From: Campylobacteraceae bacterium
Lineage (GTDB): Bacteria > Campylobacterota > Campylobacteria > Campylobacterales > Campylobacteraceae
Direction: 5' to 3'
NCBI GenBank assembly: GCA_047974135.1
Contig: JBKECC010000082.1
Location: forward strand, 1,391 to 65,390
DNA: 64,000 nucleotides
Shown here: positions 2,298 to 63,508 of the stretch, piece after piece
Layout of the letters: the number at the start of each line of letters is the position of its first letter
Numbering within the stretch: the first letter of the stretch is position 1
The notes under the pieces: generated by a model
Seen by the model: the letters and a program-made list of their open reading frames with translations, nothing else
Databases searched by the model: none
Told to the model about the DNA's origin: nothing
Translations under genes and position numbers: made by a program

Positions 2298-2309
2298 CTT
2301 ACATGTAAG
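2298..2309. repeat. palindrome core copy cTTACATGTAAg (10/12)
   Basis: Intergenic, 22 nt after the HTH ORF stop. Confidence 0.85.
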
Positions 2310-2366
2310 AAATATCTCTCTTTATCCAAATATTTTGTTACATTACCCTACTAAATTTTACAAAAC

Positions 2367-2378
2367 TTTACATGTAAG
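2367..2378. repeat. palindrome copy TTTACATGTAAg (11/12)
   Basis: Intergenic. Confidence 0.85.
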
Positions 2379-2481
2379 AGTTGAAATTGTTTTGATATAG
2401 ATATCTGATATAATGATTTTTGTTTAGCAAAATCTTTAATTATTTTAATCGAAAACAAAACTTTCAATAAAAAGCTTATTT

Positions 2482-3438
2482 ATGAAACAGATAAAACATT
2501 TCTTTAATCTCAAAAAAGAGCGGGGCGTTCTTAGGCTCTCTATAACAGCAACACTGTTTGTGGCAATATCTGGCATCGTGTTTGGCTTGATGTCAGGTTC
2601 GGTTGCTATCATGTTTGACGGAATGTACGATTTGGTTGATGCAGGCATGAGCTTGCTATCTCTTGTTGTAGTAAAGTTAATCTCCTCATACGCAAACTCC
2701 ACGGGACTTTCACCAAAACTTCAAGAGCGTTTTACTATGGGATTTTGGCACTTAGAACCGATGGTGCTTGGTTTAAATGGCACACTTTTGATAGGCATAG
2801 CAATTTATGCAGTCATAAACGCTATAAACTCACTTTTGCAAGGCGGCCGTGAACTTGAGTTTGGTATTGCTATCGTTTACGCTGTCATCATTGTTTTATT
2901 TAGCTCCGTTATAGTCTATTTTGAAAACAAAGCAAATAAGAAAATAAAATCAGCATTTATAAGTCTTGATTTGAAGTCGTGGATAATGGCAACTGGCATA
3001 ACAGCTGCACTTTTGGTTGCGTTTATTTTTGGCTTGTTTATAAAAGATAGCACACTTTCTTGGATTACGCCATATATCGATCCTATAGTTTTAATCATTA
3101 TATGTTTGATTTTGATTCCACTTCCGGTTTCAACCATAAAACAAGCACTCTCGGAAATCATGCTTGTAACTCCTACTGATTTAAAATCACACGTTGATGA
3201 TGTTGCGCAAGAGATGTTAAAAAAGTACAGTTTTTTAAAAACTTATAGAGCTTATGTGGCAAAACAAGGGCGTTCAAAAGAGATAGAGTTGTATTTTATT
3301 GTTAAAGATGATATGCCGGACAGTAGTTTAAAATTTTGGGATGACTTAAGAGATGAAATAGGCGAAAAAATAGGCGAAGACAATCCTCACAGATGGCTTA
3401 CAATAGTTTTTACAAACGACATAGAATGGGCGGAATAG
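2482..3438 (+). CDS. cation diffusion facilitator (CDF) family metal efflux transporter
   Basis: 318 aa with multiple TM helices. CDF-like N-terminus with MFDGMYDLVDAG and a C-terminal cytoplasmic domain. Confidence 0.8.
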   Translation: MKQIKHFFNLKKERGVLRLSITATLFVAISGIVFGLMSGSVAIMFDGMYDLVDAGMSLLSLVVVKLISSYANSTGLSPKLQERFTMGFWHLEPMVLGLNGTLLIGIAIYAVINAINSLLQGGRELEFGIAIVYAVIIVLFSSVIVYFENKANKKIKSAFISLDLKSWIMATGITAALLVAFIFGLFIKDSTLSWITPYIDPIVLIIICLILIPLPVSTIKQALSEIMLVTPTDLKSHVDDVAQEMLKKYSFLKTYRAYVAKQGRSKEIELYFIVKDDMPDSSLKFWDDLRDEIGEKIGEDNPHRWLTIVFTNDIEWAE

Positions 3439-3439
3439 C

Positions 3440-3451
3440 TTTACATGTAAA
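3440..3451. repeat. palindrome TTTACATGTAAA (12/12)
   Basis: Starts 2 nt after the CDF transporter stop codon. Confidence 0.9.
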
Positions 3452-3591
3452 GGTGTTTTAGGAATAGTTTATATATTAAATTGAATTCATTTCATCTGCA
3501 AAACAAACTTTAATTGGGTTCGTTTATGAACAATAACTTTAGAGATTAATTATCGTAAAGATGAATTTTATTTGTCTGTGAAGTAAAAAAG

Positions 3592-3666
3592 TGGTGACCC
3601 ATACGAGATTCGAACTCGTGTTACCGCCGTGAAAGGGCGATGTCCTAACCGTTAGACGAATGGGCC
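3592..3666 (-). tRNA. tRNA-Glu (anticodon UUC)
   Basis: Reverse complement folds as a cloverleaf: 7-bp acceptor stem, GTTCGAATC T-loop, anticodon loop CTTTCAC, encoded CCA. Confidence 0.85.
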
Positions 3667-3719: not shown

Positions 3720-4253
3720 ATGTACTTTCGTGTAAAATATACGCTTTTAAACTTAGGAAATAACTTGAAAAAACATATCATTCTTTTTACATGTATATTG
3801 CTATTTTTAACTTCTTGTACATTAAAAGAGCCTATAGAAAACTCTTATCCAATTAAACTCATTGTAAAATCTCCAGCTATTAGAACAAGTGGGACTGGTT
3901 TTTATAAAAGTGGTGGGGATTATACAAATTTGCAACTATTTTATGGAAGTAAGATGGTTATAAATTATGAATCAAACATGCTTTCGTGCTTAAATGCCCT
4001 ATGTATGCCAAAGAGTACTTTTAACAAAAACTTTCTTGGATATTCTCATTATGGAAAGATTTTTGATGAGATTTTAGCAGGCACTCCCATATATAACTCC
4101 AAAAACATAATAAAAAGCGAGTTTGGTTTCACCCAAGAGCTACAAAAAAAAGATGCATATAGTATAACTTACGATGTAAATCAAACAGATATAACTTTTA
4201 GTGATACAAAAAACGATATTTTAATCAAATTGACAAAATTAGGAAAACAATGA
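3720..4253 (+). CDS. hypothetical lipoprotein
   Basis: N-terminal hydrophobic segment with lipobox LTSC. No recognisable domain. Confidence 0.5.
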
Positions 4254-6326: not shown

Positions 6327-7925
6327 GTGCTCACATATAACTATCAAAATTTTTATGAGATGATTTGCCACAATGCAAAAAATGACCCAAATAAAAAGGT
6401 GCTGTTTTTTGAAAAAAAATCCACAACAAATCAAGAGTTAAAAACAAAGGTCGATATCTTAGCCACTTTCTTACATGTAAAAGGCATAAAGGAGGGCCAC
6501 AGAGTTGGACTCATCATAGCAAACTGTGAAGAGTTTATAGTATCTTTTTTGGCTGCCACTAGACTTGGCGCCATTTGTGTGCCTATAAATACATTTTTAA
6601 AACACGAAGAGTTTAGCCATATTTTAAATGACTGTGGTGCTAAGATGATTATAAGTTCCCCAGCATATCAAAAAGAGACTTCCTCTCTTTTGGTTACAAC
6701 AGGTATAGAAGCTATTTTGTGGACAGAAGAGTTTGAACAATATGATGATAAAAATTTTAGTTATATAGACATTCAAAAAAAAGCTATAAAAAGTGATTTA
6801 AGCGTAAGTCCAAAAATCGATGATTTGGTTTGTATTATCTACACTTCAGGAACAACAGGAAAGCCAAAAGGAGCGATGCTAAGCTATAAAAACATGCTCT
6901 CAAACATGGTGGCAGCAAAACTTGTAATGAACATAACAAATAAAGATAGATTTATCGTTTATCTACCAATGTTTCACTCTTTTACTCTTACTGTTATGAT
7001 ACTTTTGCCTATATATTTTGAATCTTCCATAGTTATAGTTCGCTCCGTTTTTCCATTTTCAAACATCTTAAAACAAGTTCTTTTAAAAAGAGTTACCATA
7101 TTTTTAGGAGTTCCAACGGTTTACAATGCTCTATTAAAAGCAAAAATCCCTTGGTATTTTATGTGGTTTAATTGCATTAGAATCTTTGTAAGTGGAAGTG
7201 CACCACTAAGTGAAAAATCGATAAGTGATTTTACTGCAAAGTTTAAAAAAGCAAAACTTATAGAAGGTTATGGACTTAGCGAATGCTCTCCTGGCGTTGC
7301 CATAAACCGCATGGATTTACAAAAACCACTCTCTGTTGGACCAGCACTTCCTGGATATACCATAAAGATAGTAGATGAAGAGATGGTGGAGCTTAAAACT
7401 GGCGAAGTTGGAGAGATTATAGTGCATGGTGATTGCACTATGCAAGGCTACTATAAAAATGAGCTTGAAACAGAAGAGACTTTAGTAAATGGATGGATAA
7501 AAACGGGAGATTTGGGCAAGCTTGACGAAGATGGCTATCTTTTTATCGTTGATAGAAAAAAAGATTTGATTATCTCAAAGGGTATAAATATCTATCCAAG
7601 AGAAATCGAAGAGGTTTTGTATCAATTGGACATAGTAGCAAATGCTGCTGTAATTGGTATCAAAAACGATATAAGTGATGAAGATGTTATAGCATTTATA
7701 GAGTATAAAGATGATGCGCCAAAAAGATTAAATGAGATGCAGATAAAAAAATACTTAAAAGAGCATCTCGCAAATTTTAAAATACCAAAAGAGATATATA
7801 TAGTTGATGATATGCCAAAAAATGCAACTGGCAAAGTCTTAAAAAGAGTTTTGAAAGAGCAAGTTTTGAAAGAGATAGAAGAGGCAAAAATAAAAGAGGG
7901 TTTTAAAGTAGAAGAAGGGGTTTAA
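6327..7925 (+). CDS. AMP-dependent synthetase / long-chain fatty-acid-CoA ligase
   Basis: AMP-binding motif IYTSGTTGKPKGAML, 532 aa. Confidence 0.85.
   Translation: MLTYNYQNFYEMICHNAKNDPNKKVLFFEKKSTTNQELKTKVDILATFLHVKGIKEGHRVGLIIANCEEFIVSFLAATRLGAICVPINTFLKHEEFSHILNDCGAKMIISSPAYQKETSSLLVTTGIEAILWTEEFEQYDDKNFSYIDIQKKAIKSDLSVSPKIDDLVCIIYTSGTTGKPKGAMLSYKNMLSNMVAAKLVMNITNKDRFIVYLPMFHSFTLTVMILLPIYFESSIVIVRSVFPFSNILKQVLLKRVTIFLGVPTVYNALLKAKIPWYFMWFNCIRIFVSGSAPLSEKSISDFTAKFKKAKLIEGYGLSECSPGVAINRMDLQKPLSVGPALPGYTIKIVDEEMVELKTGEVGEIIVHGDCTMQGYYKNELETEETLVNGWIKTGDLGKLDEDGYLFIVDRKKDLIISKGINIYPREIEEVLYQLDIVANAAVIGIKNDISDEDVIAFIEYKDDAPKRLNEMQIKKYLKEHLANFKIPKEIYIVDDMPKNATGKVLKRVLKEQVLKEIEEAKIKEGFKVEEGV
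6470..6481. repeat. palindrome copy cTTACATGTAAA (11/12)
   Basis: Inside the acyl-CoA ligase CDS, read as LHVK. Confidence 0.9.
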
Positions 7926-7927: not shown

Positions 7928-8779
7928 ATGGTTTTTATCACCGACTCAACACTTGATTTTTGGCTTAAAGAGGATGTGAGTTATATTGATTTAACGACCT
8001 TTTCTCTAGGGATTGGAGATGAAGATGCAACATTTGAGATTTACGCAAGAGATGAATGTATACTTTGTGGAAGCGAAGAGATTGAGAGATTGGCAAAGAA
8101 ATTAAACATTAATCTTTTACATGTAAAAAGTTCAGGCAAAAAAGTAAAAGATAAAGAGTTAGTTTTTAAAGCTTTTGGAAAAGCAAAAGATATACATATA
8201 CTTTGGAGAGTATCAACAAATATACTCTCTTTTGCAAGTAGCATAGCTACAAGAACTAATAGACTTGTAACTCTAGCAAAAGAGGTAAATAAAAATATAG
8301 CAGTTGGAAGTACAAGAAAATCAACTCCAGCAACTAGAGCACTTTCAACAAAAGCTGTTCTTTGTGGTGGGGGAATAATTCACAGATTAGGACTCTCTGA
8401 AACATTTTTGATGTTTGATGAACATAAAGTTTTTTTTAACTCAAATGATGACATCATTAAAAAATTACAAGAATTAAGACACACGCTTGCCGAAAAAACT
8501 CTTAGTATTGAGGTAAAAAGTGTAGAAGAAGGAACAGTTTTTGCACCTTTTGTTGATATACTTCAAGTTGATAAACTCTCACCTGAAGATGTTAACAAAA
8601 TTGTTTTACATGTAAAGACAAAAAACCTTAAAACAAAGGTTGCAGTTGCTGGTGGAGTGAATGAGAAAAATATAAAAGAGTATGCAAAAACAGGTGCAGA
8701 CTTTTTAGTAACTTCAAGTATGTTCCAAAATAGTAGTGAGATAGATTTTGGAGTTCGTATAACAAAAGGAAATAGTTGA
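7928..8779 (+). CDS. type II phosphoribosyltransferase, NadC/ModD-like
   Basis: 283 aa with similarity pattern to quinolinate PRTase/ModD family. Assignment tentative. Confidence 0.55.
   Translation: MVFITDSTLDFWLKEDVSYIDLTTFSLGIGDEDATFEIYARDECILCGSEEIERLAKKLNINLLHVKSSGKKVKDKELVFKAFGKAKDIHILWRVSTNILSFASSIATRTNRLVTLAKEVNKNIAVGSTRKSTPATRALSTKAVLCGGGIIHRLGLSETFLMFDEHKVFFNSNDDIIKKLQELRHTLAEKTLSIEVKSVEEGTVFAPFVDILQVDKLSPEDVNKIVLHVKTKNLKTKVAVAGGVNEKNIKEYAKTGADFLVTSSMFQNSSEIDFGVRITKGNS
8116..8127. repeat. palindrome TTTACATGTAAA (12/12)
   Basis: Inside the NadC-like CDS, read as LHVK. Confidence 0.9.
8605..8616. repeat. palindrome TTTACATGTAAA (12/12)
   Basis: Inside the NadC-like CDS, read as LHVK. 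Confidence 0.9.
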
Positions 8780-10536: not shown

Positions 10537-10548
10537 TTTACATGTAAA
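10537..10548. repeat. palindrome TTTACATGTAAA (12/12)
   Basis: Intergenic, 28 nt after the AAA ATPase stop, upstream of nuoA. Confidence 0.9.
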
Positions 10549-11559: not shown

Positions 11560-12359
11560 TGCGTAAATATAGTGATAAAACAAACGTTCAAAAAAAAGTC
11601 TTTTATAGAGATAGATTTAATGTAAATACGCACATTCCAAGGTTACATGTAAATAGTGATGAAGTATTTAACGAGAACTTTGAAAAATTAAGTGCAAAGT
11701 TTGATATAAAAGATGCATATATTGAAGCTGGACAAATGGTTGTTTGGATAGATGCAAAAGATATTTTTGAAGTTATAAAGTTTTTTAGAGATGAACTTTC
11801 ATACAACAATCTTTCAGAAATGAGTGCTGTTGATTTTTTAGCTACTCGTGGAGAGTTTGAGCTGTTTTATCAACTACTATCCATGAAACATAAAAAAAGA
11901 GCAAGAGTAAAATGTACATTAAAAGAGAAAGAGTCTATAAAAAGTGTATCTGAAATTTTCAAAAGTGCAAACTGGGCTGAAAGAGAAGCTTACGATATGT
12001 TTGGCATTATTATAAGTGAACATCCTTATATGAAGAGAGTTTTACTTCCAGATGATTGGAGTGGACATCCACTTTTAAAAACTTATCCACTTCATGGTGA
12101 CGAAGCAGCACAATGGTATGAAATAGATCAGATTTTTGGAGAAGAATATAGAGATTTAATAGGTCCAGAGATAAGAGATGCTGCTCGCATTGATAAAGAA
12201 GATACAAGAGCTTATGCAAGAAAAGGTCATGAAGTAAAATTTGATGAGCCTTATAGCGAAGAGCCAACCAAGATAGACAATTACCAAGAAGATGGCGGAG
12301 TTTTCTTAATCACTAAATTTAAGAAAAACAAAACTACATATTTGAAAAAGAGGCGTTAA
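11559..12359 (+). CDS. nuoC: NADH-quinone oxidoreductase subunit C
   Basis: 30-kDa subunit family, 266 aa. Confidence 0.85.
11642..11653. repeat. palindrome copy gTTACATGTAAA (11/12)
   Basis: Inside nuoC, read as LHVN. Confidence 0.9.
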
Positions 12360-13602: not shown

Positions 13603-13845
13603 ATGAAAAGATATGATTTAAGACACTTAAAAGAGAACTTTGAAGAGAGAATGGGTGAACTTATAAATGAAGCAGAAAGTAAAGAAGCGTTAATCTTTAT
13701 CTTTGAAACCATCTTAGAAGATAGATTGCAGAAGATTTTAAAAGATATAGACGCCAAGGGTCATGAAGTCTTAAACTCGTTGAGATTTAACGAAATTGAC
13801 TGGACGATAGCTATAAGAGTAAAAGGAGAGTCAAGTGAGTTATAA
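13603..13845 (+). CDS. small protein occupying the nuoE position (Cj1575c-like)
   Basis: 80 aa, unrelated to NuoE. Matches the known epsilonproteobacterial arrangement. Confidence 0.6.
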   Translation: MKRYDLRHLKENFEERMGELINEAESKEALIFIFETILEDRLQKILKDIDAKGHEVLNSLRFNEIDWTIAIRVKGESSEL

Positions 13846-14674
13846 AACATTGATAAGCACTTTTGAAAAATGTGGAGTAAGCCTAAGTAAGATTGATAGC
13901 AACAGTTCTATCATATTTTTAGGAACACTTTTCTCTTTTGATAATGAAGAGTTGGTTGAAAGAGTTTTAAAATCAAAAGAGGATTTTATCTACTGCTCGC
14001 CAATGGAAGATAGCGCTTTGCAAGAAAAAGCAAAATCATACATAAAGTATGAAGTAACAAGTGAAGCTGGGGTTTTAGCCTTGCTTTCAAAAGAGCTTTT
14101 AAAAGATGAAGAAAAAACAGAAGAAACAAAAGAGTTTTTAGATGAATTAGATGATGGATACTTAAGTGCAGAGAGCAATGTAGGCGAAGAGGAGATTTGT
14201 GAAATTGTAGAGTTTATAAAATCTTCAAAAAAATGCACACTTGTTTTAGGTGCTGATTTATACAATCACCCTGATTTAAAAAGCATCGCTGAGGTTATCT
14301 CAATACTTGTAACTGTAAGAAATTTAAGAGTTAGTATAATCGATGATATAGAACATGAAGCAAAAAAGATTGATATAAAGCCAGAAGATATAGAAGAGTT
14401 AAAAAGTTTTGATGGTTTGGTTGTCTATTTTGTTACATGTAAAAATACTAATAAAGCAGAAAAACTCTTTGGACCAAAACAGTTTTTACAAGCCGCTAAG
14501 ATAAAAGATAAAGAGGTTGTAGACATATATGTTGAAGGCAAAAAAGTTTCTACAAAAGAGTTTAATTTCCAAAGTGAATTAAAAGGAACTATCGCTATTT
14601 CAAACACAGCAAAAGATATTGAAGGTTATAGATACAAAAAAGTAAAAATTCTTCCAAAGGATACTAAACAATGA
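13835..14674 (+). CDS. protein occupying the nuoF position (Cj1574c-like)
   Basis: 279 aa with no NADH/FMN-binding motifs. Same context as C. jejuni Cj1574c. Confidence 0.6.
   Translation: MSYKTLISTFEKCGVSLSKIDSNSSIIFLGTLFSFDNEELVERVLKSKEDFIYCSPMEDSALQEKAKSYIKYEVTSEAGVLALLSKELLKDEEKTEETKEFLDELDDGYLSAESNVGEEEICEIVEFIKSSKKCTLVLGADLYNHPDLKSIAEVISILVTVRNLRVSIIDDIEHEAKKIDIKPEDIEELKSFDGLVVYFVTCKNTNKAEKLFGPKQFLQAAKIKDKEVVDIYVEGKKVSTKEFNFQSELKGTIAISNTAKDIEGYRYKKVKILPKDTKQ
14432..14443. repeat. palindrome copy gTTACATGTAAA (11/12)
   Basis: Inside the Cj1574c-like CDS, read as VTCK. Confidence 0.9.
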
Positions 14675-17157
14675 GTAAGATTAGTATCACGATAGATGGC
14701 ATCAAATGTGAAGCGGTTGAGGGAGAGTATATACTAAATGTCGCAAGAAGAAACAATATCTTCATCCCTGCACTTTGTTATCTCTCAGGCTGTTCACCAA
14801 CGCTTGCATGTAGGCTTTGTATGGCAGATGTTGATGGCAAAAGAGCTTATACATGTAACGCCAAAGCAAAAGATGGACAAGTTATAGTCTCAAGCACGCC
14901 AGAAATTGAAGAAGAACGCCGCTCCATCATGGAAGTTTACTGTATTAATCACCCTTTGGAGTGCGGAGTTTGCGACCAAAGTGGCGAATGTGAACTTCAA
15001 AACTATGTTCACGCGATTGGAGTAAATAACCAACACTATACCATTGCAAATACTCACAAACCAGTTGAAAATTGGGGTTTAACAAGATACGACGCTTCAC
15101 TTTGTATTATGTGTGAAAGATGCGTTACTGTTTGCAAAGATCGAGTTGGTTGCAACGCTTTAAAAACAGTTCCAAGAGGTGAGGGGCTAGCAGTTCCTAA
15201 AGAAAACAAAGACAGTATGCCAAAAGATGCATTTGCTGTTTGGAATAGGCTACAAAAATCAATCATAGCAAAAGTAGAAGACGTGGACTGTGGAGATTGT
15301 GGGGCATGTGCTGAAGTTTGTCCTGTTGGAGCACTTGTTGTAACAGGTTTTCACTACAAATCTAACTCGTGGGAACTACAAAAAATCCCAGCAGCAAATC
15401 CTCATAGTAGCGATTGCTCTTTGATATATTATGAAGTAAAACAGATAAGCCAACAAAACAGTGAAGAAAAAATATACAGAGTTGAAGGCGAACAACCATT
15501 TAACGTTATAAATGGAGCTGCAAGATTTGGCTACGACTTTGAAAATAGAGTTAAAGAAAAAGATGAGAATAGCTTTAATGAAGCCATATCTTTTATAAAA
15601 ACAAAAGCTGACACTATAAAATTTAATAGCTATATAACTAACGAAGAAGCTCTAATTTTACAAAAAATCAAAGAAAAATACAACTTAAAACTTGTAAATG
15701 ATGACGCCTTTAGATATCAAAGATTTTTAAATGCATTTTCATCTTCAAGTACAAAAAGCTTATATCAAGGCTCTCTAAAAGAGATTGAAGAGAGCAATTT
15801 TATAGTTAGTGTTGGAACGGCTTTAAGATACGACTTTCCAAATGGCGGATACGCATTTAACACCGCTTTAAAGATGAACAAGGCAAGCGGGATTTACGCT
15901 CATCCAATAGCCGATAAAATCGTTGAAGATTACTCAAAAAATCTTTTAAGCTTGCAGTATAAAGTAGGTAGTGAAGAAGCTATGTTTTATCTGTTGCTTG
16001 AACTTTGTGCTAATAAATCAATGCTTGATGAGGCAACAAAAGAGTATCTAAACTCTTTACATGTAAAATCAAAAAGAATGGCTGATGAAAACGTTGTAGA
16101 AGAAATCATAGAAAAAGTTATAAAAAAGATACAAGATGAGACAGGTGACGAGAGAGAAATAGAAGAAGAGGTACCTAAAAAAGTTACAAAAGTTGTGCAA
16201 AAAGAGGTTGAATACGAGACAACAAAACTTTGGGAGTTGGCTGGACTTGAAGATTTTAAAGAAAAAGTAGAAACTTTAAAGAGTGGAAAAGATAGATTTA
16301 GCTTGATTATCGGTGAAGATTTACTAACTCATAAAAATTGGGAAAATTTAGCAATACTTGCTGGAACCATAGAAAGAACAACACCTTTTAGTGTTACAAT
16401 CATCCCTCCACAAACAAACACTTTAGGGGTTGCCTTACTTTGCGAACTTGATGAGTTTGGTGGTGAAAACACTCTTGGTTACAATGAAAAAGGAAGCTTT
16501 ACTCTAAGTGCGCTTGGTGATGGAGAGCTTGATATGCCTTCACTAAATCAACAAGAGGGAACTTTTACAAGTATTGACAAAAGAGTGGTTCCTACAAATG
16601 CGGCTTTGGGTTATAAAGGCTATATTTTAAATGACTTAGCAAACGCTTTAGGGATAAGAGCAAAATATACTATTGATTACACAAAAGAGTTGCCAGATAA
16701 AAGTGGATATATAAAAAAAGAGTTTGACGAATTGCCAAATTACTTTGACAATGGTGGCACAGAACATCGCGGTTATCTTTTACATTTAAAAGAAAATGAA
16801 GTTTTAAAAACTCCAAAAGATATAAGCACTTTTGAGTTGAGTAAAAACACTGTTTACAAAAAAAATCCAGTACTTCAATTTAACGCTTTTACAAATAAGG
16901 CTCTTGAGATTACCTCGTGTGCTGCACTTTATGCTTCGGAAGAGTTTTTACATGTAAACGATTTAAGAGATGGACAAAGTATAAAACTCGTAAGCGATGA
17001 TGGAAAACTACTTTCAATCAAAGTAAAGCTCGACAAAAACGTAAAAGGACTTATCCCTTCTCTTCCAACGTTCGATACAAAAGTTGATGTTAGTGCATTT
17101 TTCAAAGATGGATATAGATTTGGAACATACGAGATAAAAGGAGCAGATAATGAGTGA
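14671..17157 (+). CDS. nuoG: NADH-quinone oxidoreductase subunit G
   Basis: N-terminal 2Fe-2S/4Fe-4S cysteine motifs, 828 aa. Confidence 0.85.
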   Translation: MSKISITIDGIKCEAVEGEYILNVARRNNIFIPALCYLSGCSPTLACRLCMADVDGKRAYTCNAKAKDGQVIVSSTPEIEEERRSIMEVYCINHPLECGVCDQSGECELQNYVHAIGVNNQHYTIANTHKPVENWGLTRYDASLCIMCERCVTVCKDRVGCNALKTVPRGEGLAVPKENKDSMPKDAFAVWNRLQKSIIAKVEDVDCGDCGACAEVCPVGALVVTGFHYKSNSWELQKIPAANPHSSDCSLIYYEVKQISQQNSEEKIYRVEGEQPFNVINGAARFGYDFENRVKEKDENSFNEAISFIKTKADTIKFNSYITNEEALILQKIKEKYNLKLVNDDAFRYQRFLNAFSSSSTKSLYQGSLKEIEESNFIVSVGTALRYDFPNGGYAFNTALKMNKASGIYAHPIADKIVEDYSKNLLSLQYKVGSEEAMFYLLLELCANKSMLDEATKEYLNSLHVKSKRMADENVVEEIIEKVIKKIQDETGDEREIEEEVPKKVTKVVQKEVEYETTKLWELAGLEDFKEKVETLKSGKDRFSLIIGEDLLTHKNWENLAILAGTIERTTPFSVTIIPPQTNTLGVALLCELDEFGGENTLGYNEKGSFTLSALGDGELDMPSLNQQEGTFTSIDKRVVPTNAALGYKGYILNDLANALGIRAKYTIDYTKELPDKSGYIKKEFDELPNYFDNGGTEHRGYLLHLKENEVLKTPKDISTFELSKNTVYKKNPVLQFNAFTNKALEITSCAALYASEEFLHVNDLRDGQSIKLVSDDGKLLSIKVKLDKNVKGLIPSLPTFDTKVDVSAFFKDGYRFGTYEIKGADNE
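16056..16067. repeat. palindrome TTTACATGTAAA (12/12)
   Basis: Inside nuoG, read as LHVK. Confidence 0.9.
16947..16958. repeat. palindrome TTTACATGTAAA (12/12)
   Basis: Inside nuoG, read as LHVN. Confidence 0.9.
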
Positions 17158-24476: not shown

Positions 24477-24477
24477 G
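24466..24477. repeat. palindrome copy TTTACATGTAAg (11/12)
   Basis: Its TAC-ATG-TAA frame supplies the last two codons and the stop of nuoN. Confidence 0.9.
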
Positions 24478-24486
24478 GGCAAAAAA

Positions 24487-24762: not shown

Positions 24763-24768
24763 ATTTTA

Positions 24769-44518: not shown

Positions 44519-45337
44519 TTGCTTTACTTTGTTCCTACCCCGATAGGAAATCTTGAAGATATTTCGGTAAGGGCTTTAAGGCTCCTTACCACAACTCCTA
44601 TTATTTACTGCGAAGATACAAGAGTAACAAAAAAACTTATAACACTTTTAAAAGAAAAACACAACTTAACTTTTACATGTAACCAAACTTTTATATCTCT
44701 TCATTCACACAATGAAGAAGAGACAGTAAAAAAGTTAAATGTGGAAGATTTTTTACAAAACGATGTTTTGTATGTAAGTGATGCTGGAATGCCAGGCATT
44801 AGTGATCCTGGTATTTTACTGGTAGAATTTGCACAAAAAAATGGCATAAAATATGAAGTTCTCCCAGGTGCAAACGCTGCTCTTGTTGGACTTGTCTCGA
44901 GCGGTTTTAGTGGAAACAGATTTTATTTTTATGGATTTTTACCGCACAAAAACGAAGCAAGAAAGAGTGAATTAACGCAGATTTTATCTTTTACATGTAA
45001 TGTTATTTTATATGAATCAACTCACAGAATTTTAAAACTCACCGAAGAATTTTCTCTTCTTGCCCCAAATAGAGAAATTTTTATCATTAAAGAAGCTACA
45101 AAAAAGTACGAAACTCATTTTTTAGGAACTGCAAAAGAGGTTCATGAAAAAATGAAAAATTCAAATACAAATGGCGAATTTGTAGTAATTTTAAAAGGTT
45201 TAGAGCAGCCAAAGGGCGAAGCACTTACAAAAGAAGATATTTTATCTTTAAATATACCAAACAAACAAAAAGCAAAACTTTTATCAAAAATGTCTGGAAT
45301 CTCCACAAAAGAGTGGTACGAAAAGCTAAATAACTAA
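44519..45337 (+). CDS. rsmI: 16S rRNA (cytidine1402-2'-O)-methyltransferase
   Basis: LYFVPTPIGNLEDIS N-terminus. TTG start. Confidence 0.8.
   Translation: MLYFVPTPIGNLEDISVRALRLLTTTPIIYCEDTRVTKKLITLLKEKHNLTFTCNQTFISLHSHNEEETVKKLNVEDFLQNDVLYVSDAGMPGISDPGILLVEFAQKNGIKYEVLPGANAALVGLVSSGFSGNRFYFYGFLPHKNEARKSELTQILSFTCNVILYESTHRILKLTEEFSLLAPNREIFIIKEATKKYETHFLGTAKEVHEKMKNSNTNGEFVVILKGLEQPKGEALTKEDILSLNIPNKQKAKLLSKMSGISTKEWYEKLNN
44672..44683. repeat. palindrome copy TTTACATGTAAc (11/12)
   Basis: Inside rsmI, read as FTCN. Confidence 0.9.
44990..45001. repeat. palindrome copy TTTACATGTAAt (11/12)
   Basis: Inside rsmI, read as FTCN. Confidence 0.9.
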
Positions 45338-48959: not shown

Positions 48960-50237
48960 ATGATAAAAGTAGCAATTTTAGGGGTTGGCACAGTTGGCAG
49001 TAGTGTTGCAAATATCTTAGAAAAAAATGCCAAAATCATTGAAGCAAGAAGTGGAAAAAAAATCGTTCCTGTTATCGGCGTTGTAAAAAATTTAAACAAA
49101 CAAAGAGATGTAAAAATACCTCTAACTGACGATATGGACAGTGTTTTAGATAGAAACGATATAGATATTTATGTTGAACTTATGGGTGGAGTTGATGAAG
49201 CATATAGGGTTGTAAAAAAAGTTTTACAAAAAGGCAAAACAGTAGTTACTGCAAATAAAGCGCTTCTAGCTTATCACAGATATGACTTGCAAAAAGATGC
49301 TAACGCAAACGGTGCATCAATTGGTATAGAAGCAAGCGTTGCTGGCGGTATTCCTGTTATCAAAGCTTTGCGTGAAGGACTTAGTGCAAATCAAATCTTA
49401 GCGATTAAAGGCATTATTAACGGAACTTGTAACTATATCTTAACTAAGATGATGAATGAAAAAGTCTCATTTGCTGAAGTTTTAAAAGAGGCTCAAGAGT
49501 TAGGCTACGCAGAAGCCGATCCAACCTTTGATGTTGGCGGATTTGATGCTGCTCATAAACTTTTAATACTTGCAAGTATAGCTTATGGTATAGATGCTAA
49601 ACCAGAAGATATTTTGATTGAAGGTATTGAAAACATTGGAAGCGAAGATATATATTTTGCAAAAGATTTTGAGTATAACATCAAGCTTCTAGGAATTGCA
49701 AAAAAAGTTGGCAAAAAAGTAGAACTTCGTGTGCATCCAGCACTTGTTCCAACTGAAAAAATGATAGCAAAAGTTGATGGAGTTATGAACGCAGTAAGTG
49801 TTGTTGGTGACTGCGTTGGTGAAACTGTATATTATGGTGCAGGAGCTGGAGGAGACGCAACAGCAAGTGCCGTAATCGCTGATATTATTGACATAGTAAG
49901 AGAAGATAAAAACTCTCCAATGCTTGGTTACATGTACTCTCTAGATAAAGAAAAACTAACTCTTATGAGTCCAGATGATATAGAGACAAAATACTATTTT
50001 AGAGTAAAAGTAAAAGATGAGATTGGAGTTCTAGCAAAAATAGCTTCACTTTTAGAAAAATCAAATATTTCAATAGATAGCTTTTTGCAAAAACCAGAAA
50101 TAAAACAATCACTATTTACAACACTTCTTTTTGCAACACACAAATGCAAAGAAAAAGATGTAAAAAAAGCCCTAAAAGAGATAGAAACACAAGATTTTGT
50201 GGTTGAGAAACCAGTTATGATTAGGATTGAGGATTAA
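48960..50237 (+). CDS. hom: homoserine dehydrogenase
   Basis: NAD-binding GVGTVG and a C-terminal ACT domain. Confidence 0.85.
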   Translation: MIKVAILGVGTVGSSVANILEKNAKIIEARSGKKIVPVIGVVKNLNKQRDVKIPLTDDMDSVLDRNDIDIYVELMGGVDEAYRVVKKVLQKGKTVVTANKALLAYHRYDLQKDANANGASIGIEASVAGGIPVIKALREGLSANQILAIKGIINGTCNYILTKMMNEKVSFAEVLKEAQELGYAEADPTFDVGGFDAAHKLLILASIAYGIDAKPEDILIEGIENIGSEDIYFAKDFEYNIKLLGIAKKVGKKVELRVHPALVPTEKMIAKVDGVMNAVSVVGDCVGETVYYGAGAGGDATASAVIADIIDIVREDKNSPMLGYMYSLDKEKLTLMSPDDIETKYYFRVKVKDEIGVLAKIASLLEKSNISIDSFLQKPEIKQSLFTTLLFATHKCKEKDVKKALKEIETQDFVVEKPVMIRIED

Positions 50238-51025: not shown

Positions 51026-51037
51026 TTTACATGTAAG
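51026..51037. repeat. palindrome copy TTTACATGTAAg (11/12)
   Basis: trxA-trxB intergenic, after the hairpin. First of a pair. Confidence 0.9.
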
Positions 51038-51051: not shown

Positions 51052-51063
51052 TTTACATGTAAA
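51052..51063. repeat. palindrome TTTACATGTAAA (12/12)
   Basis: trxA-trxB intergenic, 14 bp after the previous copy. Confidence 0.9.
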
Positions 51064-55141: not shown

Positions 55142-55164
55142 ATCCTTTTACATATAAAAGGATT
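55141..55164 (+). terminator. AATCCTTTT-acatat-AAAAGGATT hairpin at radical-SAM gene end
   Basis: 9-bp perfect arms. The centre is a one-mismatch copy of the 12-bp palindrome (TTTACATaTAAA). Confidence 0.35.
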
Positions 55165-55183: not shown

Positions 55184-55195
55184 TTTACATGTAAA
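55184..55195. repeat. palindrome TTTACATGTAAA (12/12)
   Basis: Intergenic after the radical-SAM gene. Confidence 0.9.
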
Positions 55196-56314: not shown

Positions 56315-56326
56315 TTTACATGTAAA
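56315..56326. repeat. palindrome TTTACATGTAAA (12/12)
   Basis: In the 24-nt gap between the hisIE stop and the TauE start. Coordinates set from the ORF-track boundaries; my raw count of the text gave +1. Confidence 0.85.
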
Positions 56327-56330: not shown

Positions 56331-57002
56331 TTATTTCTTTGTTCTGTTGTTTTTCTCTTCTATGCCACTAAGTCCAAAGCGTCTGGCTAGCTCTTGCTCA
56401 AGTCTATCTGGATGTATATTTTTGTCGCCAAGAGCAACTAACATGTGAAAAAGAAGGTCAGCACCTTCGTAGATTATCTCATTTTCTTTATTGTCTTTTA
56501 CTGCAAAGGTAAACTCTCCAGCTTCTTCAACAACTTTCTTTAAGTATGAATTTTCACCTTTACTTAAAAGTTTTGCAACGTAAGAAGTTTCAGGATTTGC
56601 GTTTTTTCTCTCCAATATAGTGTGATAAAGTTTATCTAAAACCCCATAATGCAAGATGGTTTGTGTGTCAATGTTTTCATTTTTTTCTTTACATGTAAAA
56701 GCGTCTGTAAAAAAGCAACTTTTGTGTCCCGTGTGACAAGCAACGCCTATTTGCTCTACTTTCAAAAGAATAGTGTCAGCGTCACAATCAAGAATCATCT
56801 CTTTGATATTTTGGATATTTCCACTACTCTCACCTTTTTTCCAAATTCTCTGTTTAGAGCGTGAGAAGTAGTGGGCTATGCCAGTTTGTTGTGAAAGATT
56901 AAAAGCTTCTTCATTCATGTAGGCAAGCATCAAAACTTCATTGGTTACTATATCTTGTGCGATTGCTGGCACAAGTGGTGTTTTACTCCAATCAATTTTC
57001 AA
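56331..57002 (-). CDS. hisI: bifunctional phosphoribosyl-AMP cyclohydrolase/phosphoribosyl-ATP pyrophosphatase
   Basis: HisI N-terminal plus HisE C-terminal motifs. TTG start. Confidence 0.85.
   Translation of the reverse strand: MKIDWSKTPLVPAIAQDIVTNEVLMLAYMNEEAFNLSQQTGIAHYFSRSKQRIWKKGESSGNIQNIKEMILDCDADTILLKVEQIGVACHTGHKSCFFTDAFTCKEKNENIDTQTILHYGVLDKLYHTILERKNANPETSYVAKLLSKGENSYLKKVVEEAGEFTFAVKDNKENEIIYEGADLLFHMLVALGDKNIHPDRLEQELARRFGLSGIEEKNNRTKK
56688..56699. repeat. palindrome TTTACATGTAAA (12/12)
   Basis: Inside hisIE (minus strand), read as FTCK. Confidence 0.9.
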
Positions 57003-59222: not shown

Positions 59223-59234
59223 CTTACATGTAAA
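59223..59234. repeat. palindrome copy cTTACATGTAAA (11/12)
   Basis: 12 nt upstream of the tautomerase ATG, after a TATAAT box. Confidence 0.9.
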
Positions 59235-59245: not shown

Positions 59246-59464
59246 ATGCCTTATGTAAATATAAAAATCACAAAAGAGGGTGCAACTGCCAAACAAAAAG
59301 CAGAATTAATCAGTGGAGTTACAAAGCTTCTAGTAGATGTTTTGGGCAAAAACCCAAAAACTACAGTTGTTGTGATAGACGAAGTTGAAACTGACAATTG
59401 GGGTATTGGTGGCGAAGTAGTTACTGATATAAGAGCAAAAGTAAAACAAGCTCAAAAATGCTAA
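59246..59464 (+). CDS. 4-oxalocrotonate tautomerase family protein
   Basis: 72 aa with MPYVNIKI N-terminal Pro1 motif. Confidence 0.75.
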   Translation: MPYVNIKITKEGATAKQKAELISGVTKLLVDVLGKNPKTTVVVIDEVETDNWGIGGEVVTDIRAKVKQAQKC

Positions 59465-60345
59465 AAATCCCGCTTTCTTGCTTTAATATTTCAAACTATT
59501 TAACTACTTTTAAAATAGAAAATTTTTATCCTATTAACTACTCTGTTTATGATGAGCAAGCTATAAATATATTTTTTAGGAATAAAGATTGGCGAAGTGA
59601 AGCGATAGATTTTAAAGTTTTAAGCATAAGTGTTGATTTTTTTAAAGGGGATATTTTTGGAGTCGAGATTTATGAGATTGGAAAGCAGACAAGAAAGCTT
59701 TGGCATTTTAAAGAGTTTAAAGATGGCTATTTATTTTTAGGTGCAAATGTAACACAAGAAAATAATTATCATGAAGTAAATGCTATAATTTACGACAAAA
59801 GCTTTCAATTACAAAATGAATTTTCTCTTGGAAATGGTGTTGAAGATATCTTGATAAACAGAAAAAATGAGATAGTCGTTAGTTACTGTGATGAGGGAGT
59901 TTATGGCGATTTTGGAGTTAGTTCACACGGAGTTGTAAAGTTTTCAACAAGTGGTGAATTGCTTTGGGTAAATACAAAGCATAGAATTGATGATTGTTAC
60001 GCTATAAACTTTGATAGTGATGAAAATCTGTGGTTTTACTATTATGATGATTTTTATTTAATTAAAACAAATTTTGAAAAAGAGAGTATTTATGACCCCA
60101 ATATTACTGGTTCAAAAACATTTATGTTAAACAAAAAAATAGATAAAATCATCATGGATAAAGGGTATGATAAGCATGACAAATTTGTTGTAAAGTCTAT
60201 AAAAGAGGGCAAATTTGATAAAGGTGAAGAGGTTTTGTTTGCATGTAAAGATATTGAAATAAAGCCACAAACATATCTTTTTTATAAATCTTCGATTTTA
60301 TTTGTTGATAAAAATGAACTTTTTTTTGGAAAATGGCAAGATTAA
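59458..60345 (+). CDS. hypothetical protein
   Basis: 295-aa ORF, no recognisable motifs. Confidence 0.4.
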   Translation: MLKIPLSCFNISNYLTTFKIENFYPINYSVYDEQAINIFFRNKDWRSEAIDFKVLSISVDFFKGDIFGVEIYEIGKQTRKLWHFKEFKDGYLFLGANVTQENNYHEVNAIIYDKSFQLQNEFSLGNGVEDILINRKNEIVVSYCDEGVYGDFGVSSHGVVKFSTSGELLWVNTKHRIDDCYAINFDSDENLWFYYYDDFYLIKTNFEKESIYDPNITGSKTFMLNKKIDKIIMDKGYDKHDKFVVKSIKEGKFDKGEEVLFACKDIEIKPQTYLFYKSSILFVDKNELFFGKWQD

Positions 60346-60832: not shown

Positions 60833-60844
60833 CTTACATGTAAG
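60833..60844. repeat. palindrome core copy cTTACATGTAAg (10/12)
   Basis: Core starts 3 nt after the bcp stop. Confidence 0.85.
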
Positions 60845-61380: not shown

Positions 61381-61844
61381 TAGAAGTTGGAAAAGAAGCA
61401 CCACTTTTTTGTTTACCAAATCAAGATGATGTAGAGATTTGCCTTAGAGATTTAAAAGGAAAGTGGGTGATTTTGTACTTTTATCCAAAAGACAATACAC
61501 CAGGATGTACAACAGAAGCTTGTGAATTTAGCGCGAGTTTGCCAAACTTTGAAGACTTAAATGCTGTTATTGTGGGCATTAGTCCTGATAGCACAAAATC
61601 TCATCAAAAATTTATAGAAAAAAAAGATTTAAAATTCACACTTTTGAGTGATGAAAAAAATGAAGTATCAACTTTATATGATGTTTGGAAACTCAAAAAA
61701 CTTTATGGACGCGAATATATGGGCATTGAACGCTCCACTTTTCTTGTAGACCCAAAAGGAAAAGTAGCTTATATTTGGCGAAAAGTTAAAGTTAATGGAC
61801 ATGTTAGTGAAGTTGGAAAAATATTAAGTGGATTGCAAAAGTAG
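61377..61844 (+). CDS. bcp: second Bcp-type peroxiredoxin paralog
   Basis: YPKDNTPGCTTEAC. About half the residues are identical to the upstream bcp by eye. Confidence 0.85.
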   Translation: MIEVGKEAPLFCLPNQDDVEICLRDLKGKWVILYFYPKDNTPGCTTEACEFSASLPNFEDLNAVIVGISPDSTKSHQKFIEKKDLKFTLLSDEKNEVSTLYDVWKLKKLYGREYMGIERSTFLVDPKGKVAYIWRKVKVNGHVSEVGKILSGLQK

Positions 61845-62552
61845 ATGAGCAAAGAGAGCATTTTACAAAACATTGATGAAGTTTTGAAAAGGATAGAGCT
61901 TGTTTGCAAAAATTGTGGCAGAAACAAAGAGGAAGTAAAACTCCTTCTTGCCACAAAAACAGTAAGTAGCGATGATATAAAAATAGCGCTAAGTTCGGGA
62001 CAAACTCTAATTGCCGAAAACAAAGTCCAAGAGTTAAAAAGCAAATATGAAGACTTAAAAGATGTTTTACATGTAAACCATTTCATCGGACATTTGCAGA
62101 CAAATAAAATCAAAGATATTTTAAAGTGCGATGTAAAGTGCATCGAATCAGTTGACAGACTTGACCTTGCTTTGAAACTTCATGAAAAGCTAAAAGCTGA
62201 TGGCAAAACCATGGAGATTTTTATAGAAGTTAACACTTCAGGTGAAGCAAGTAAGTTTGGAGTAGAGTTAAAAGATGCTGTTAGTTTAGCCAAAGAGATT
62301 TCAAAGCTTGACTCTTTACATGTAAAAGGTTTGATGACTATAGGACTTTTTAGTGATGATGAGGTAAAAGTAAGAGAGTGTTTTAAAAAACTAAAAAATC
62401 TTCTAACAACTATAAAAGCTTTAAATTTGCCAAATTTTGATTTAAAAGAACTCTCTATGGGAATGAGTGGAGATTTAGAAATCGCCATAGAAGAGGGCTC
62501 AACTATCGTTCGTGTTGGAAGTGCTATATTTGGAGCAAGAAATTATCATTAA
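61845..62552 (+). CDS. yggS: YggS-family PLP homeostasis protein
   Basis: Alanine-racemase N-terminal-like fold with GHLQTNK motif. Confidence 0.8.
   Translation: MSKESILQNIDEVLKRIELVCKNCGRNKEEVKLLLATKTVSSDDIKIALSSGQTLIAENKVQELKSKYEDLKDVLHVNHFIGHLQTNKIKDILKCDVKCIESVDRLDLALKLHEKLKADGKTMEIFIEVNTSGEASKFGVELKDAVSLAKEISKLDSLHVKGLMTIGLFSDDEVKVRECFKKLKNLLTTIKALNLPNFDLKELSMGMSGDLEIAIEEGSTIVRVGSAIFGARNYH
62066..62077. repeat. palindrome TTTACATGTAAA (12/12)
   Basis: Inside yggS, read as LHVN. Confidence 0.9.
62315..62326. repeat. palindrome TTTACATGTAAA (12/12)
   Basis: Inside yggS, read as LHVK. Confidence 0.9.
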
Positions 62553-62555
62553 GCT

Positions 62556-62567
62556 TTTACATGTAAA
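62556..62567. repeat. palindrome TTTACATGTAAA (12/12)
   Basis: Starts 4 nt after the yggS stop and ends 3 nt before the convergent DMT stop. Confidence 0.9.
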
Positions 62568-62569
62568 AG

Positions 62570-63448
62570 CTATTTTCCCTTAAAATAGCCCATTCGGTTG
62601 ATGATATAAATAGCAAAGATATTTAAAAGCACACCAAAAATCATCCAAATACTTACACTCTCTCCTAAAAATATCGCTCCACAAAATATGGAAGAAAATG
62701 GCACTAAAAACATAAAGGAACTTACTTCACTGCTTCCAAGTTGCTTTGCTCCTAAAAAGAAAAAAGATGTAGCAAGAGAGGTGCTGACAACAGAAACACA
62801 AAGTAAATTTGCCCAAAATCTAAAGTCAGTTTTACTAAAATCAAACGAAGTTATATCTGAGAATGGAAAGCTTAAGATAGCTACAAAAAGATACATGTAA
62901 AAGGTAAAAATGACAGGACTTTTTGCATTTGAAAAAGAGCTCAAAATTGTCAAAACAGACCAAAGAAAAGCTCCTAAAACAAAGTATAAATTGTAGATAG
63001 TTAAGATTTTTTCCGTATCAAACTTCCAAATTCCAAGTATAAGCATCGAACCAATAAAACCCAAAAACAAAGCAAAAACATCTACTTTAAACATCTTTTT
63101 TTTAAAAAACAAAACAAGCAAAACAAAGGTAACGATTGGAGAGAGTGTGTTTATAAAACTTCCAGCAACCGAGGCTGTTCCAAGGCTTGTTCCTATAAAG
63201 ATAAGTGCAGTGTAGATAGATGTGATAAACCCAGCTACAAACGAGACAAAAAGCGTTCTTTTGGAGATTTTAAAGTCAAGTCTTAGGGCTAAAACTATGA
63301 AAAACGAAGCAACAGCACTCACAAAATACCGTAAAAATACCAACTCTTTCGTGCCTATATACTCATATAAAATCTTCATATTTGTCCACGACATACCCCA
63401 AGCGAGCATTGAAAAAAAGATGAGAATGTAAAAGTGATTTTTGCTCAA
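62570..63448 (-). CDS. DMT/EamA-family transporter
   Basis: 10-TM protein with two EamA-like halves. Confidence 0.7.
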   Translation of the reverse strand: MSKNHFYILIFFSMLAWGMSWTNMKILYEYIGTKELVFLRYFVSAVASFFIVLALRLDFKISKRTLFVSFVAGFITSIYTALIFIGTSLGTASVAGSFINTLSPIVTFVLLVLFFKKKMFKVDVFALFLGFIGSMLILGIWKFDTEKILTIYNLYFVLGAFLWSVLTILSSFSNAKSPVIFTFYMYLFVAILSFPFSDITSFDFSKTDFRFWANLLCVSVVSTSLATSFFFLGAKQLGSSEVSSFMFLVPFSSIFCGAIFLGESVSIWMIFGVLLNIFAIYIINRMGYFKGK

Positions 63449-63496
63449 AGAAACTTCTTTTTGTAAAATAGAGTTGTGATTTTATCCAAAATATGC

Positions 63497-63508
63497 TTTA
63501 CATGTAAA
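63497..63508. repeat. palindrome TTTACATGTAAA (12/12)
   Basis: Divergent DMT/queH promoter gap. Confidence 0.9.

Follow-up and report, generated by a model that had tools for sequence, protein, structure and literature searches.

A 12-bp perfect palindrome, TTTACATGTAAA, is spread through genes and spacers of a 64-kb window of a Campylobacteraceae genome (contig JBKECC010000082.1; the window is the whole 64,000-nucleotide stretch that we analyzed, and all coordinates are its own) at about 700-fold above the chance expectation. We counted 27 exact copies, about one per 2.4 kb (the first at 3440, the last at 63497–63508), and 41 copies of the 10-bp core TTACATGTAA, about one per 1.5 kb (the first at 2299). 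The reading that we favor, with a probability of roughly 45%, is that TTTACATGTAAA serves the Sulfurospirillaceae as a self-DNA tag linked to natural transformation and spread by molecular drive, in the manner of the DNA uptake sequence (DUS) of Neisseriaceae, the uptake signal sequence (USS) of Pasteurellaceae, and the highly iterated palindrome HIP1 of cyanobacteria. To our knowledge, Neisseriaceae, Pasteurellaceae, and cyanobacteria are the only clades in which substitution has inscribed a short word in the genome at such a scale.

A 12-bp word enriched far above chance

An earlier sequence-only reading of this DNA had arrived at the same 27 and 41 copies and had put the chance expectation well below 0.1. 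Dinucleotide-preserving shuffles bore this out, with 0.04 copies of TTTACATGTAAA and 0.19 of TTACATGTAA expected, and none of 100 shuffles matched the observed counts. The further single-mismatch copies that it had claimed amount to 23 sites with exactly one mismatch, and 68 sites lie within two mismatches of the 12-mer against 13.6 expected. No other family of 8-, 10-, and 12-mers in the window comes close to this degree of over-representation. Against the 27 observed, Markov models trained on the window predicted 0.03–0.05 copies at orders 1–3, rising to 0.36 (order 4) and 4.0 (order 5); the expectation rises at the higher orders because sub-words of the motif itself contaminate the model. 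The enrichment is therefore real, and nothing in the local annotation explains it.

A purely artefactual origin, whether through composition, codon or peptide preference, a dispersed repeat, or faulty assembly, could appeal to the AT-rich genome and motif and to the order-5 expectation of up to 4. It is nonetheless hardly credible. The expectation of 0.03–0.36 from shuffles and Markov orders 1–4, the enrichment in carriers of 31–45% GC, and the absence of the motif from AT-rich unrelated DNA rule out a compositional or Markov artefact. No peptide can account for copies that use two reading frames and also occur between genes; their flanks are uninformative, and orthologous sites differ by substitution, not insertion. 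Confinement to this window as an assembly artefact, a possibility that had been raised, is excluded by the density of the motif in many independent assemblies, of isolates as well as metagenome-assembled genomes (MAGs). Spacing along the window is approximately random (coefficient of variation 0.89–0.93 versus 0.95–0.97 for random placement; P about 0.4, with low power at 27–50 sites), and the regular or quasi-periodic spacing that is a trait of HIP1 was not seen in these 64 kb.

We found that the enriched unit is the whole 12-mer. The tetramer CATG occurs 202 times, exactly as often as expected (202), and 50 of the 54 ACATGT hexamers lie inside TACATGTA (41 of them inside TTACATGTAA), leaving only 4 outside the motif; neither CATG nor ACATGT can thus be the enriched unit. 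The suggestion that these sub-words mark a restriction-type target is not backed by the sequence, given the neutral CATG count, the rarity of free ACATGT, and a 12-bp specificity that exceeds usual methyltransferase sites. A position profile anchored on the core carried information over 12 bp only, with a softer outermost T/A pair and, immediately outside it, no more than a weak preference for C...G. When 677 kb of motif-rich DNA were pooled, the inner 8 bp proved almost invariant, and one-off variants fell overwhelmingly at the outer two positions, 63 of the 130 being T to C at position 1. We conclude that the signal is a recognition-type word of 12 bp (consensus YTTACATGTAAR), and not a restriction-site-sized core or a longer repeat element. 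Its invariant inner 8 bp and softer edges look like a protein recognition profile.

Several familiar classes of element do not match this word. The lack of information beyond 12 bp means that it is not a mobile element, and a dispersed repeat of the MITE (miniature inverted-repeat transposable element) or REP (repetitive extragenic palindrome) type is rejected by the uninformative flanks, by the 63% of exact copies that are genic, and by orthologous sites that differ by substitutions alone. Restriction-modification sites are 4–8 bp long and avoided in their host, whereas this word is 12 bp long and enriched, with CATG neutral. Polar motifs such as Chi or KOPS (FtsK-orienting polar sequences) are asymmetric 5–8-mers with a replication-related strand skew and show enrichment that is orders of magnitude smaller; moreover, the motif equals its own reverse complement, so it can have no strand polarity.

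A by-product of DNA modification or repair deserves more weight. In this explanation, an orphan methyltransferase or a nuclease of the very-short-patch (Vsr) type would bias correction toward an extended CATG/ACATGT context, as may happen with HIP1, with no involvement of uptake. The palindrome does have a CATG core and is enriched in genes and spacers alike, the apparent patchiness among relatives described below would fit a dispensable enzyme, and HIP1 is tied to orphan methyltransferases (PMC4390886). Set against this are the CATG count at expectation, the scarcity of ACATGT outside the motif, a specificity of 12 bp that goes beyond the usual methyltransferase or Vsr contexts, one-off variants with neither excess nor deficit at the C/G positions subject to deamination (from tiny counts), and the absence of a methyltransferase gene from the window. 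We regard a modification or repair by-product as quite unlikely.

Gene ends, reading frames, and protein sequence

About 94% of the window is coding. Seventeen of the exact copies (63%) are genic and 10 are intergenic (copies of both kinds had been noted in the sequence-only reading), which corresponds to one per 3.6 kb and one per 0.36 kb, respectively, or an approximately 10-fold higher density between genes. All the carrier genes that it had named (nuoC, nuoG, nuoL, ureE, ureF, a queE-like gene, rsmE, rsmI, hisIE, and yggS) do contain copies, and so do ureD and urtB. Genic exact copies occupy only two frames: 13 read xxT-TTA-CAT-GTA-AAx (Leu-His-Val-Lys/Asn) and 4 read TTT-ACA-TGT-AAA (Phe-Thr-Cys-Lys). 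In the third frame, which includes a TAA, there are only near-copies that break the TAA, plus the stop codon of nuoN itself at 24466.

Each of the four convergent gaps of the window (180 bp in total) contains an exact copy. In pooled Sulfurospirillaceae loci, the core likewise reached one per 92 bp in convergent gaps (36 of 66 such gaps carry one), compared with one per 294 bp in co-directional gaps, one per 644 bp in divergent gaps, and one per 3,098 bp within genes; the ranges were one per 45–92 bp (convergent), about 280 bp (co-directional), 490–644 bp (divergent), and 2,300–3,100 bp (genic). A lone 12-mer offers a stem of only 4 bp, too little for a stable hairpin, and some single copies fold no better than shuffles (z −0.6 to −1.4). 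Folding energies of −6 to −16 kcal/mol, with z −2 to −3.8, are reached by paired copies and by extended palindromes. One such extended palindrome, AGCTTTTACATGTAAAAGCT, fills the yggS/eamA gap. It looks as if an abundant self-complementary word had been recruited secondarily into terminator-like hairpins at gene 3′ ends.

Could the motif then be an RNA or transcription element in the first place, an AT-rich bidirectional terminator or processing hairpin whose genic copies are incidental? The exact copy in four of four convergent gaps speaks for this, as do the folding energies of pairs and extended palindromes, and a pattern scan of 24,000–38,000 found no canonical GC-rich terminator in the two of the four convergent gaps that it covered (24763–24806 and 36855–36887). 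However, 63% of the exact copies are genic at the cost of residue changes, the lone 12-mer with its 4-bp stem can fold no better than a shuffle, no consistent U-tract follows the hairpins, and divergent (promoter) gaps carry copies too. A primary role in termination is accordingly very improbable.

Comparison of orthologous loci (66–72% nucleotide identity) showed that motif sites align with ordinary sequence and without indels; for example, ACATTACATGTAAAAG of the window aligns with ACTGGGTACTTTGAAC of the related locus L076. These alignments indicate that copies arise in situ by point substitution. Sites at 16056 and 19796 are common to the window and the closest sampled relative (L121), and the site at 16779 is exact in L121 and decayed to a one-off in the window, which shows that motif sites are both inherited and turned over between genomes.

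The proteome of the window bears the imprint of the word. All 17 Leu-His-Val tripeptides are encoded as TTA-CAT-GTA, where codon usage predicts about 5%. The tripeptide is 7.6-fold above its amino-acid-frequency expectation, LHV[K/N] is about 50-fold above (16 versus 0.32), and FTCK about 80-fold (5 versus 0.06). In NuoG, ten orthologues have FLEKR, FLEIH, FLDSH, and similar in place of FLHVN, and the motif positions in NuoG, NuoC, an acyl-CoA synthetase-like protein, and YggS are variable ones at which residues have been changed. Uniform LHV codons together with other residues in the orthologues argue that a force acting on DNA overrides protein sequence where this is tolerated. Selection on the peptide is rejected, as two reading frames and intergenic copies are in use and the codons conform to the motif in 100% of cases. 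USS has likewise been reported to distort Haemophilus proteins.

Carrier genomes, phages, and the sites of the window

The NuoD of the window is 100% identical to an NCBI protein from a Campylobacteraceae MAG, in keeping with a member of the Campylobacterota. The closest other NuoD sequences (80–83% identical) belong to Campylobacteraceae MAGs, followed by those of Sulfurospirillum (74–77%), a genus that the NCBI taxonomy places in Campylobacterota; Campylobacterales; Sulfurospirillaceae. We scanned one representative genome per species (185,579 species) for two exact copies at most 30 bp apart. At least 97 loci matched; among the matches listed, about 85% came from Sulfurospirillum/Sulfurospirillaceae and from 'Campylobacterales'/'Campylobacteraceae' MAGs, including the isolates S. 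arcachonense DSM 9755 and Sulfurospirillum sp. SCADC, and the few from other phyla had no further copy. With the ascertaining pair masked, at least 12 Sulfurospirillaceae genomes of 31–45% GC, two of them isolates, carried the core at one per 1.7–4 kb, and about 1.1 Mb of unrelated bacterial contigs had no core copy.

We also compared nuo loci of about 21 kb each, chosen independently of the motif (L099, L101, and L103 duplicate L100 or L102). The window's locus contains 11 core copies, and L098, L121, L100, L102, L105, L106, and L108 contain 1 to 4 each. No core copy was present in about 20 kb each of L122, L123, Sulfurospirillum sp. 1612, and Nitrosophilus alvini. Together, these comparisons point to a family-level trait that is independent of base composition and densest in the genome of the window, and that is possibly missing from some family members, as judged from small samples. 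The same small samples hint at rapid gain or loss within the family. The nuo loci L122, L123, and L104, with zero core copies in about 20 kb each, encode NuoD proteins 77–82% identical to that of the window.

Searching 2.9 million viral contigs for pairs of the motif, we obtained 12 matches, all of them local operator-like repeats in unrelated phages, so phage origin or mimicry is rejected for want of any motif-dense phage among these contigs. The phage contigs concerned (L109–L120) carry TTTACATGTAAA in tight operator-like clusters, with six copies in L114, which points to TTTACATGTAAA as a natural binding site of phage repressor-type proteins.

The phage sites bear on an explanation in which the copies form an array for an abundant dimeric DNA-binding protein (nucleoid, chromosome-organizing, or transcription-unit-boundary), selected site by site as in the parS, Noc, SlmA, and matS systems; the preference for gene ends and intergenic DNA would then reflect a function at operon borders. 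Two 6-bp half-sites with central information, as in dimeric helix-turn-helix sites, would suit such a protein, as would the use of the 12-mer by unrelated phages as tandem operator-like sites and the presence of a copy in all four convergent gaps and in many other gaps. In addition, TACATGTA is predicted to offer flexible pyrimidine-purine steps between short A/T tracts, which are typical of sharply bent sites. On the other hand, the 17 genic exact copies were made by residue changes, and selection would have to outweigh the protein cost each time. Spacing is Poisson-like with no regular array, and the density of one per 1.5–2.4 kb is 10–50 times that of known palindromic chromosome-organizing sites. 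We consider an array of this kind unlikely.

The genes of the window are all housekeeping genes: the nuo operon, a urea ABC transporter, urease with its accessory genes, moaA, queD, queE, queH, rsmE, rsmI, hisIE, yggS, trx/trxB, dapB, purF, peroxiredoxins, and one tRNA-Glu. The sites are listed below; "exact" denotes TTTACATGTAAA, "core" a copy with the 10-bp core, RBS a ribosome-binding site, and ORF an open reading frame.

2298–2309: CTTACATGTAAG (10-bp core), intergenic, upstream of a cation diffusion facilitator (CDF) transporter gene
2367–2378: TTTACATGTAAG (core), intergenic, 69 bp from the preceding copy
3440–3451: exact, 1 bp past the stop of the CDF gene (2482–3438), facing tRNA-Glu (3592–3666, minus strand)
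3786–3797: TTTACATGTATA, gene 3720–4253, reads F-T-C-I
6470–6481: CTTACATGTAAA (core), acyl-CoA synthetase-like gene; FLHVKG versus FLEFSG in orthologues
8116–8127: exact, modD/nadC-like gene, L-H-V-K
8605–8616: exact, modD/nadC-like gene, L-H-V-K
10537–10548: exact, intergenic, 27 bp past an AAA-ATPase gene and 130 bp upstream of nuoA
11642–11653: GTTACATGTAAA (core), nuoC; RLHVNS versus KLDVSS/KEEVSS in orthologues
14432–14443: GTTACATGTAAA (core), gene 13835–14674, V-T-C-K, variable position
14848–14859: TATACATGTAAC (8-bp core), nuoG; site largely conserved in orthologues and thus pre-adapted
16056–16067: exact, nuoG, SLHVK, common to the closest relative L121; others SFHT..
16779–16790: TTTACATTTAAA (one-off), nuoG; exact copy at the orthologous site in L121
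16947–16958: exact, nuoG; FLHVN versus FLEKR/FLEIH in orthologues
19796–19807: exact, nuoL, LHVN; family members conserve this site in part
21157–21168: TTTACATGTATA, nuoL, Y-M-Y frame
21294–21305: TTTACATGGAAA (one-off), nuoL
22022–22033: GTTACATGTATC (8-bp core), nuoM
24466–24477: TTTACATGTAAG (core), end of nuoN, whose stop codon is the TAA of the motif
24769–24780: exact, 44-bp convergent gap; hairpin with the 24793 copy, −10 to −14 kcal/mol
24793–24804: TTTACAGGTAAA, same convergent gap, hairpin partner of 24769
25474–25485: TTTACATGTAGA, divergent gap, response regulator gene/urtA
27214–27225: exact, urtB, L-H-V-N
31541–31552: exact, ureD, L-H-V-K
31698–31709: exact, ureD, F-T-C-K
31712–31723: exact, ureD, L-H-V-N, 2 bp past the preceding copy
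34418–34429: CTTACATGTAAA (core), ureE
35064–35075: exact, ureF, L-H-V-K
35136–35147: exact, ureF, L-H-V-K
35730–35741: TTTACATGTACA, ureG, Y-M-Y frame
35976–35987: exact, 1 bp past the ureG stop; long hairpin with the 36015 copy, −16.4 kcal/mol, z −3.8
36015–36026: TTTACTTGTAAA, hairpin partner of 35976
36875–36886: exact, 33-bp convergent gap, parE-like gene/miaA
37848–37859: exact, divergent gap, miaA/ubiA-family gene; site common to the related locus L089
39189–39200: TTTACATGTAAG (core), gene 38779–39240
39722–39733: exact, uracil-DNA glycosylase (UDG)-like gene 39237–39953, L-H-V-K
41070–41081: TTTACATGTAAG (core), queE-like radical-SAM gene, F-T-C-K
43490–43501: TTTACATGTATA, gene 43118–43519
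44031–44042: exact, rsmE, F-T-C-K
44672–44683: TTTACATGTAAC (core), rsmI
44990–45001: TTTACATGTAAT (core), rsmI; the orthologous DNA in L076 is unrelated, ACTGGGTACTTTGAAC
49927–49938: GTTACATGTACT (8-bp core), homoserine dehydrogenase gene
51026–51037: TTTACATGTAAG (core), intergenic, thioredoxin/thioredoxin reductase genes
51052–51063: exact, same thioredoxin/thioredoxin reductase gap, 23 bp upstream of the trxB-like start
55147–55158: TTTACATATAAA, convergent gap, within the 18-bp palindrome CCTTTTACATATAAAAGG, in a hairpin with a 13-bp stem
55184–55195: exact, 86-bp convergent gap shared with the 55147 copy
56315–56326: exact, hisIE/tauE-family gene (both minus strand), filling half of their 24-bp gap
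56688–56699: exact, hisIE, F-T-C-K on the minus strand
59223–59234: CTTACATGTAAA (core), divergent gap, just upstream of the RBS of a small ORF starting at 59246
60238–60249: TTTGCATGTAAA (one-off), gene 59458–60345
60833–60844: CTTACATGTAAG (core), 21-bp gap; its 3′ end TAAGGA is the likely RBS of the next gene
62066–62077: exact, yggS; VLHVNHFI versus (V/T/I)PH(T/E)NHFI in homologues
62315–62326: exact, yggS; SLHVKGLM versus TLHIKGLM/TLKIKGLM in homologues
62556–62567: exact, takes up 12 bp of the 17-bp gap that separates the convergent genes yggS and eamA, center of the 20-bp palindrome AGCTTTTACATGTAAAAGCT
62890–62901: GATACATGTAAA (8-bp core), eamA-family gene
63497–63508: exact, 21 nt past the called start of the queH ORF (the true start may lie further downstream)

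At 60833 and 56315, the AAGG(A) flank of the motif doubles as a likely Shine-Dalgarno sequence. The ORF from 59246 (plus strand), which is below the 80-aa cut-off, begins MPYVNIKIT and presumably encodes a relative of 4-oxalocrotonate tautomerase, which it resembles. Between 35975 and 36584, 610 bp without an ORF of at least 80 aa precede a gene for a ParE-family toxin (36585–36854) and probably hold a small antitoxin gene; this cassette is flanked by the motif copies at 35976, 36015, and 36875. An Rfam match to 5_ureB_sRNA (102 bits, gathering score 40) lies at 32713–32997 on the minus strand, antisense within the gene for the urease alpha subunit, and could be due to the conserved coding sequence instead of a genuine antisense RNA.

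The YggS protein of the window (61845–62552) is 63–67% identical to YggS of Capnocytophaga (Bacteroidota), and the 80 metagenome loci (L124–L203) retrieved with it have no neighboring gene in common with the window. The gene may have been acquired horizontally and then gained its two exact copies; alternatively, the pattern-based search may have biased the sample. Some of these loci carry a different dispersed palindrome of odd length, (A)CTTTGSCAAAG(T), seen in L124 (for example at 10809, 12666, 12703, 13370, and 16995), L125, and L132. Its inner word TTTGSCAAA occurs 7–10 times per 11–21 kb in these three contigs against about 0.2 expected, with some pairs 37–39 bp apart. CTTTGSCAAAG was considered as a 'dialect' of our motif and rejected, the three contigs being Capnocytophaga and unrelated. 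CATG is missing from 10–21 kb of L124, L128, L132, L133, and L147 (about 36–76 expected) and nearly so from L125, L129, and L131, an avoidance in L124 (Capnocytophaga) and the other contigs that presumably stems from a CATG-specific restriction system.

A possible transformation tag and its known counterparts

The self-DNA tag ranks best among the explanations because the motif matches DUS and USS in magnitude, origin by substitution, peptide distortion, inverted copies at 3′ ends, and clade specificity. DUS, USS, and HIP1 are all now tied to natural transformation. Under this reading, a symmetric reader, which could be a DNA-binding dimer belonging to the transformation machinery, would recognize the 12-bp palindrome at uptake or just before recombination, and might read a methylated CATG core much as C. 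jejuni reads methylated RAATTY. Fragments bearing the motif would be taken up and recombined more often, and mutations that create or improve a copy would be over-transmitted, so that molecular drive would build up copies through point substitution at all places where their cost can be borne. This cost would be lowest in convergent gaps, higher in other intergenic DNA, and highest at variable protein positions in the two stop-free frames. Extended copies and pairs at 3′ ends would have become hairpins secondarily and could help transcription termination. More specifically, the motif could represent a further, independently evolved uptake-sequence system, with a symmetric receptor or methylated CATG as the means of recognition; on this tentative proposal, Campylobacterota would have their first such system, and no earlier one would use a long perfect palindrome.

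Several points weigh against the self-DNA tag. The link to transformation, the reader, and the role of methylation are what we infer, and any other strong DNA-level drive or selection for the word would yield every sequence feature that supports it. No DNA methyltransferase, restriction, competence, or mobile-element gene was found within the 64-kb window. A search of open-access papers and bioRxiv, to which our coverage was limited, returned no report of natural transformation in Sulfurospirillum, nor any description of the motif or competence or methylome report for this genus. A perfect 12-bp palindrome fits dimeric helix-turn-helix operators better, and unrelated phages put the identical 12-mer to local operator-like use; DUS and USS, by comparison, are asymmetric. 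They are also stable across their families, whereas the motif is possibly patchy among close relatives, with none in L122, L123, or Sulfurospirillum sp. 1612 in samples of only about 20 kb each. We keep as live candidates all three mechanisms that the sequence-only reading had put forward, an uptake or recombination signal, methylation- or repair-based drive, and a site for a dimeric protein.

A fourth, unrelated case of such a word would provide a tractable system, with a 12-bp palindrome, culturable carriers (S. arcachonense DSM 9755 and Sulfurospirillum sp. SCADC), a measurable protein cost, and close relatives that appear to differ several-fold in density. It would allow one to ask whether such words are always uptake tags, who reads them, and how quickly the drive builds them up and erodes them. 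If the motif does represent an independently evolved uptake-sequence system, it would bridge the methyl-RAATTY discrimination of C. jejuni and the classical molecular drive of DUS and USS, and the sharp density contrast between close relatives would make the clade a natural experiment on the gain and loss of uptake specificity. As for practical use, the motif could serve as a marker for binning Sulfurospirillaceae contigs and as a candidate sequence for constructs to transform organohalide- and arsenate-respiring Sulfurospirillaceae.

HIP1, DUS, and USS, the comparators originally proposed, are the right ones. The kind of element is known from these three; the sequence, the phylum, and the combination of a 12-bp perfect palindrome with a DUS/USS-like anatomy are new. 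The claim that a palindromic uptake signal would be new was overstated, with RAATTY of C. jejuni and HIP1 as palindromic precedents. In C. jejuni, uptake requires the palindrome RAATTY methylated by CtsM, according to PMC10046745, which cites Beauchamp 2017. CtsM and RA(m6)ATTY come from the same order (Campylobacterales) as the motif described here and set a precedent for a palindromic transformation signal and a symmetric 'self' mark at uptake. RAATTY, however, is a common 6-mer that is marked by methylation and not enriched, whereas our motif is a rare 12-mer enriched about 700-fold.

HIP1 (GCGATCGC) is likewise a hyperabundant perfect palindrome within and between genes, clade-wide with exceptions. 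It differs in being 8 bp long and GC-rich rather than 12 bp long and AT-rich, and our motif has a stronger preference for intergenic DNA and gene ends, an embedded CATG that is not enriched, and no quasi-periodic spacing in 64 kb. The function of HIP1 was long obscure and is now tied to natural transformation: it has been proposed as an uptake sequence (bioRxiv 10.1101/2024.09.10.611283; 10.64898/2026.06.24.733823) and, as reported, raises transformation up to 100-fold when methylated (bioRxiv 10.1101/2024.09.10.611283).

The sites parS, NBS (Noc-binding), SBS (SlmA-binding), and matS resemble the motif in being 12–16-bp palindromes bound by dimers, scattered, and tolerated in genes. They number tens to about a hundred per genome, while the motif extrapolates to about a thousand and reshapes proteins.

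DUS (10–12 bp) and USS (9-bp core) share the most with our motif. Each is a word enriched several hundred-fold at about one per 1–2.5 kb, which originates by point substitution in genes and spacers, distorts peptides at tolerant positions, and is densest at the 3′ ends of genes, with inverted copies folding into hairpins there; inverted pairs of DUS and USS sit in terminators. Each is common to a family-level clade and absent elsewhere. Apart from its symmetry and possible patchiness, the motif of the Sulfurospirillaceae differs from them in belonging to another phylum, the Campylobacterota.

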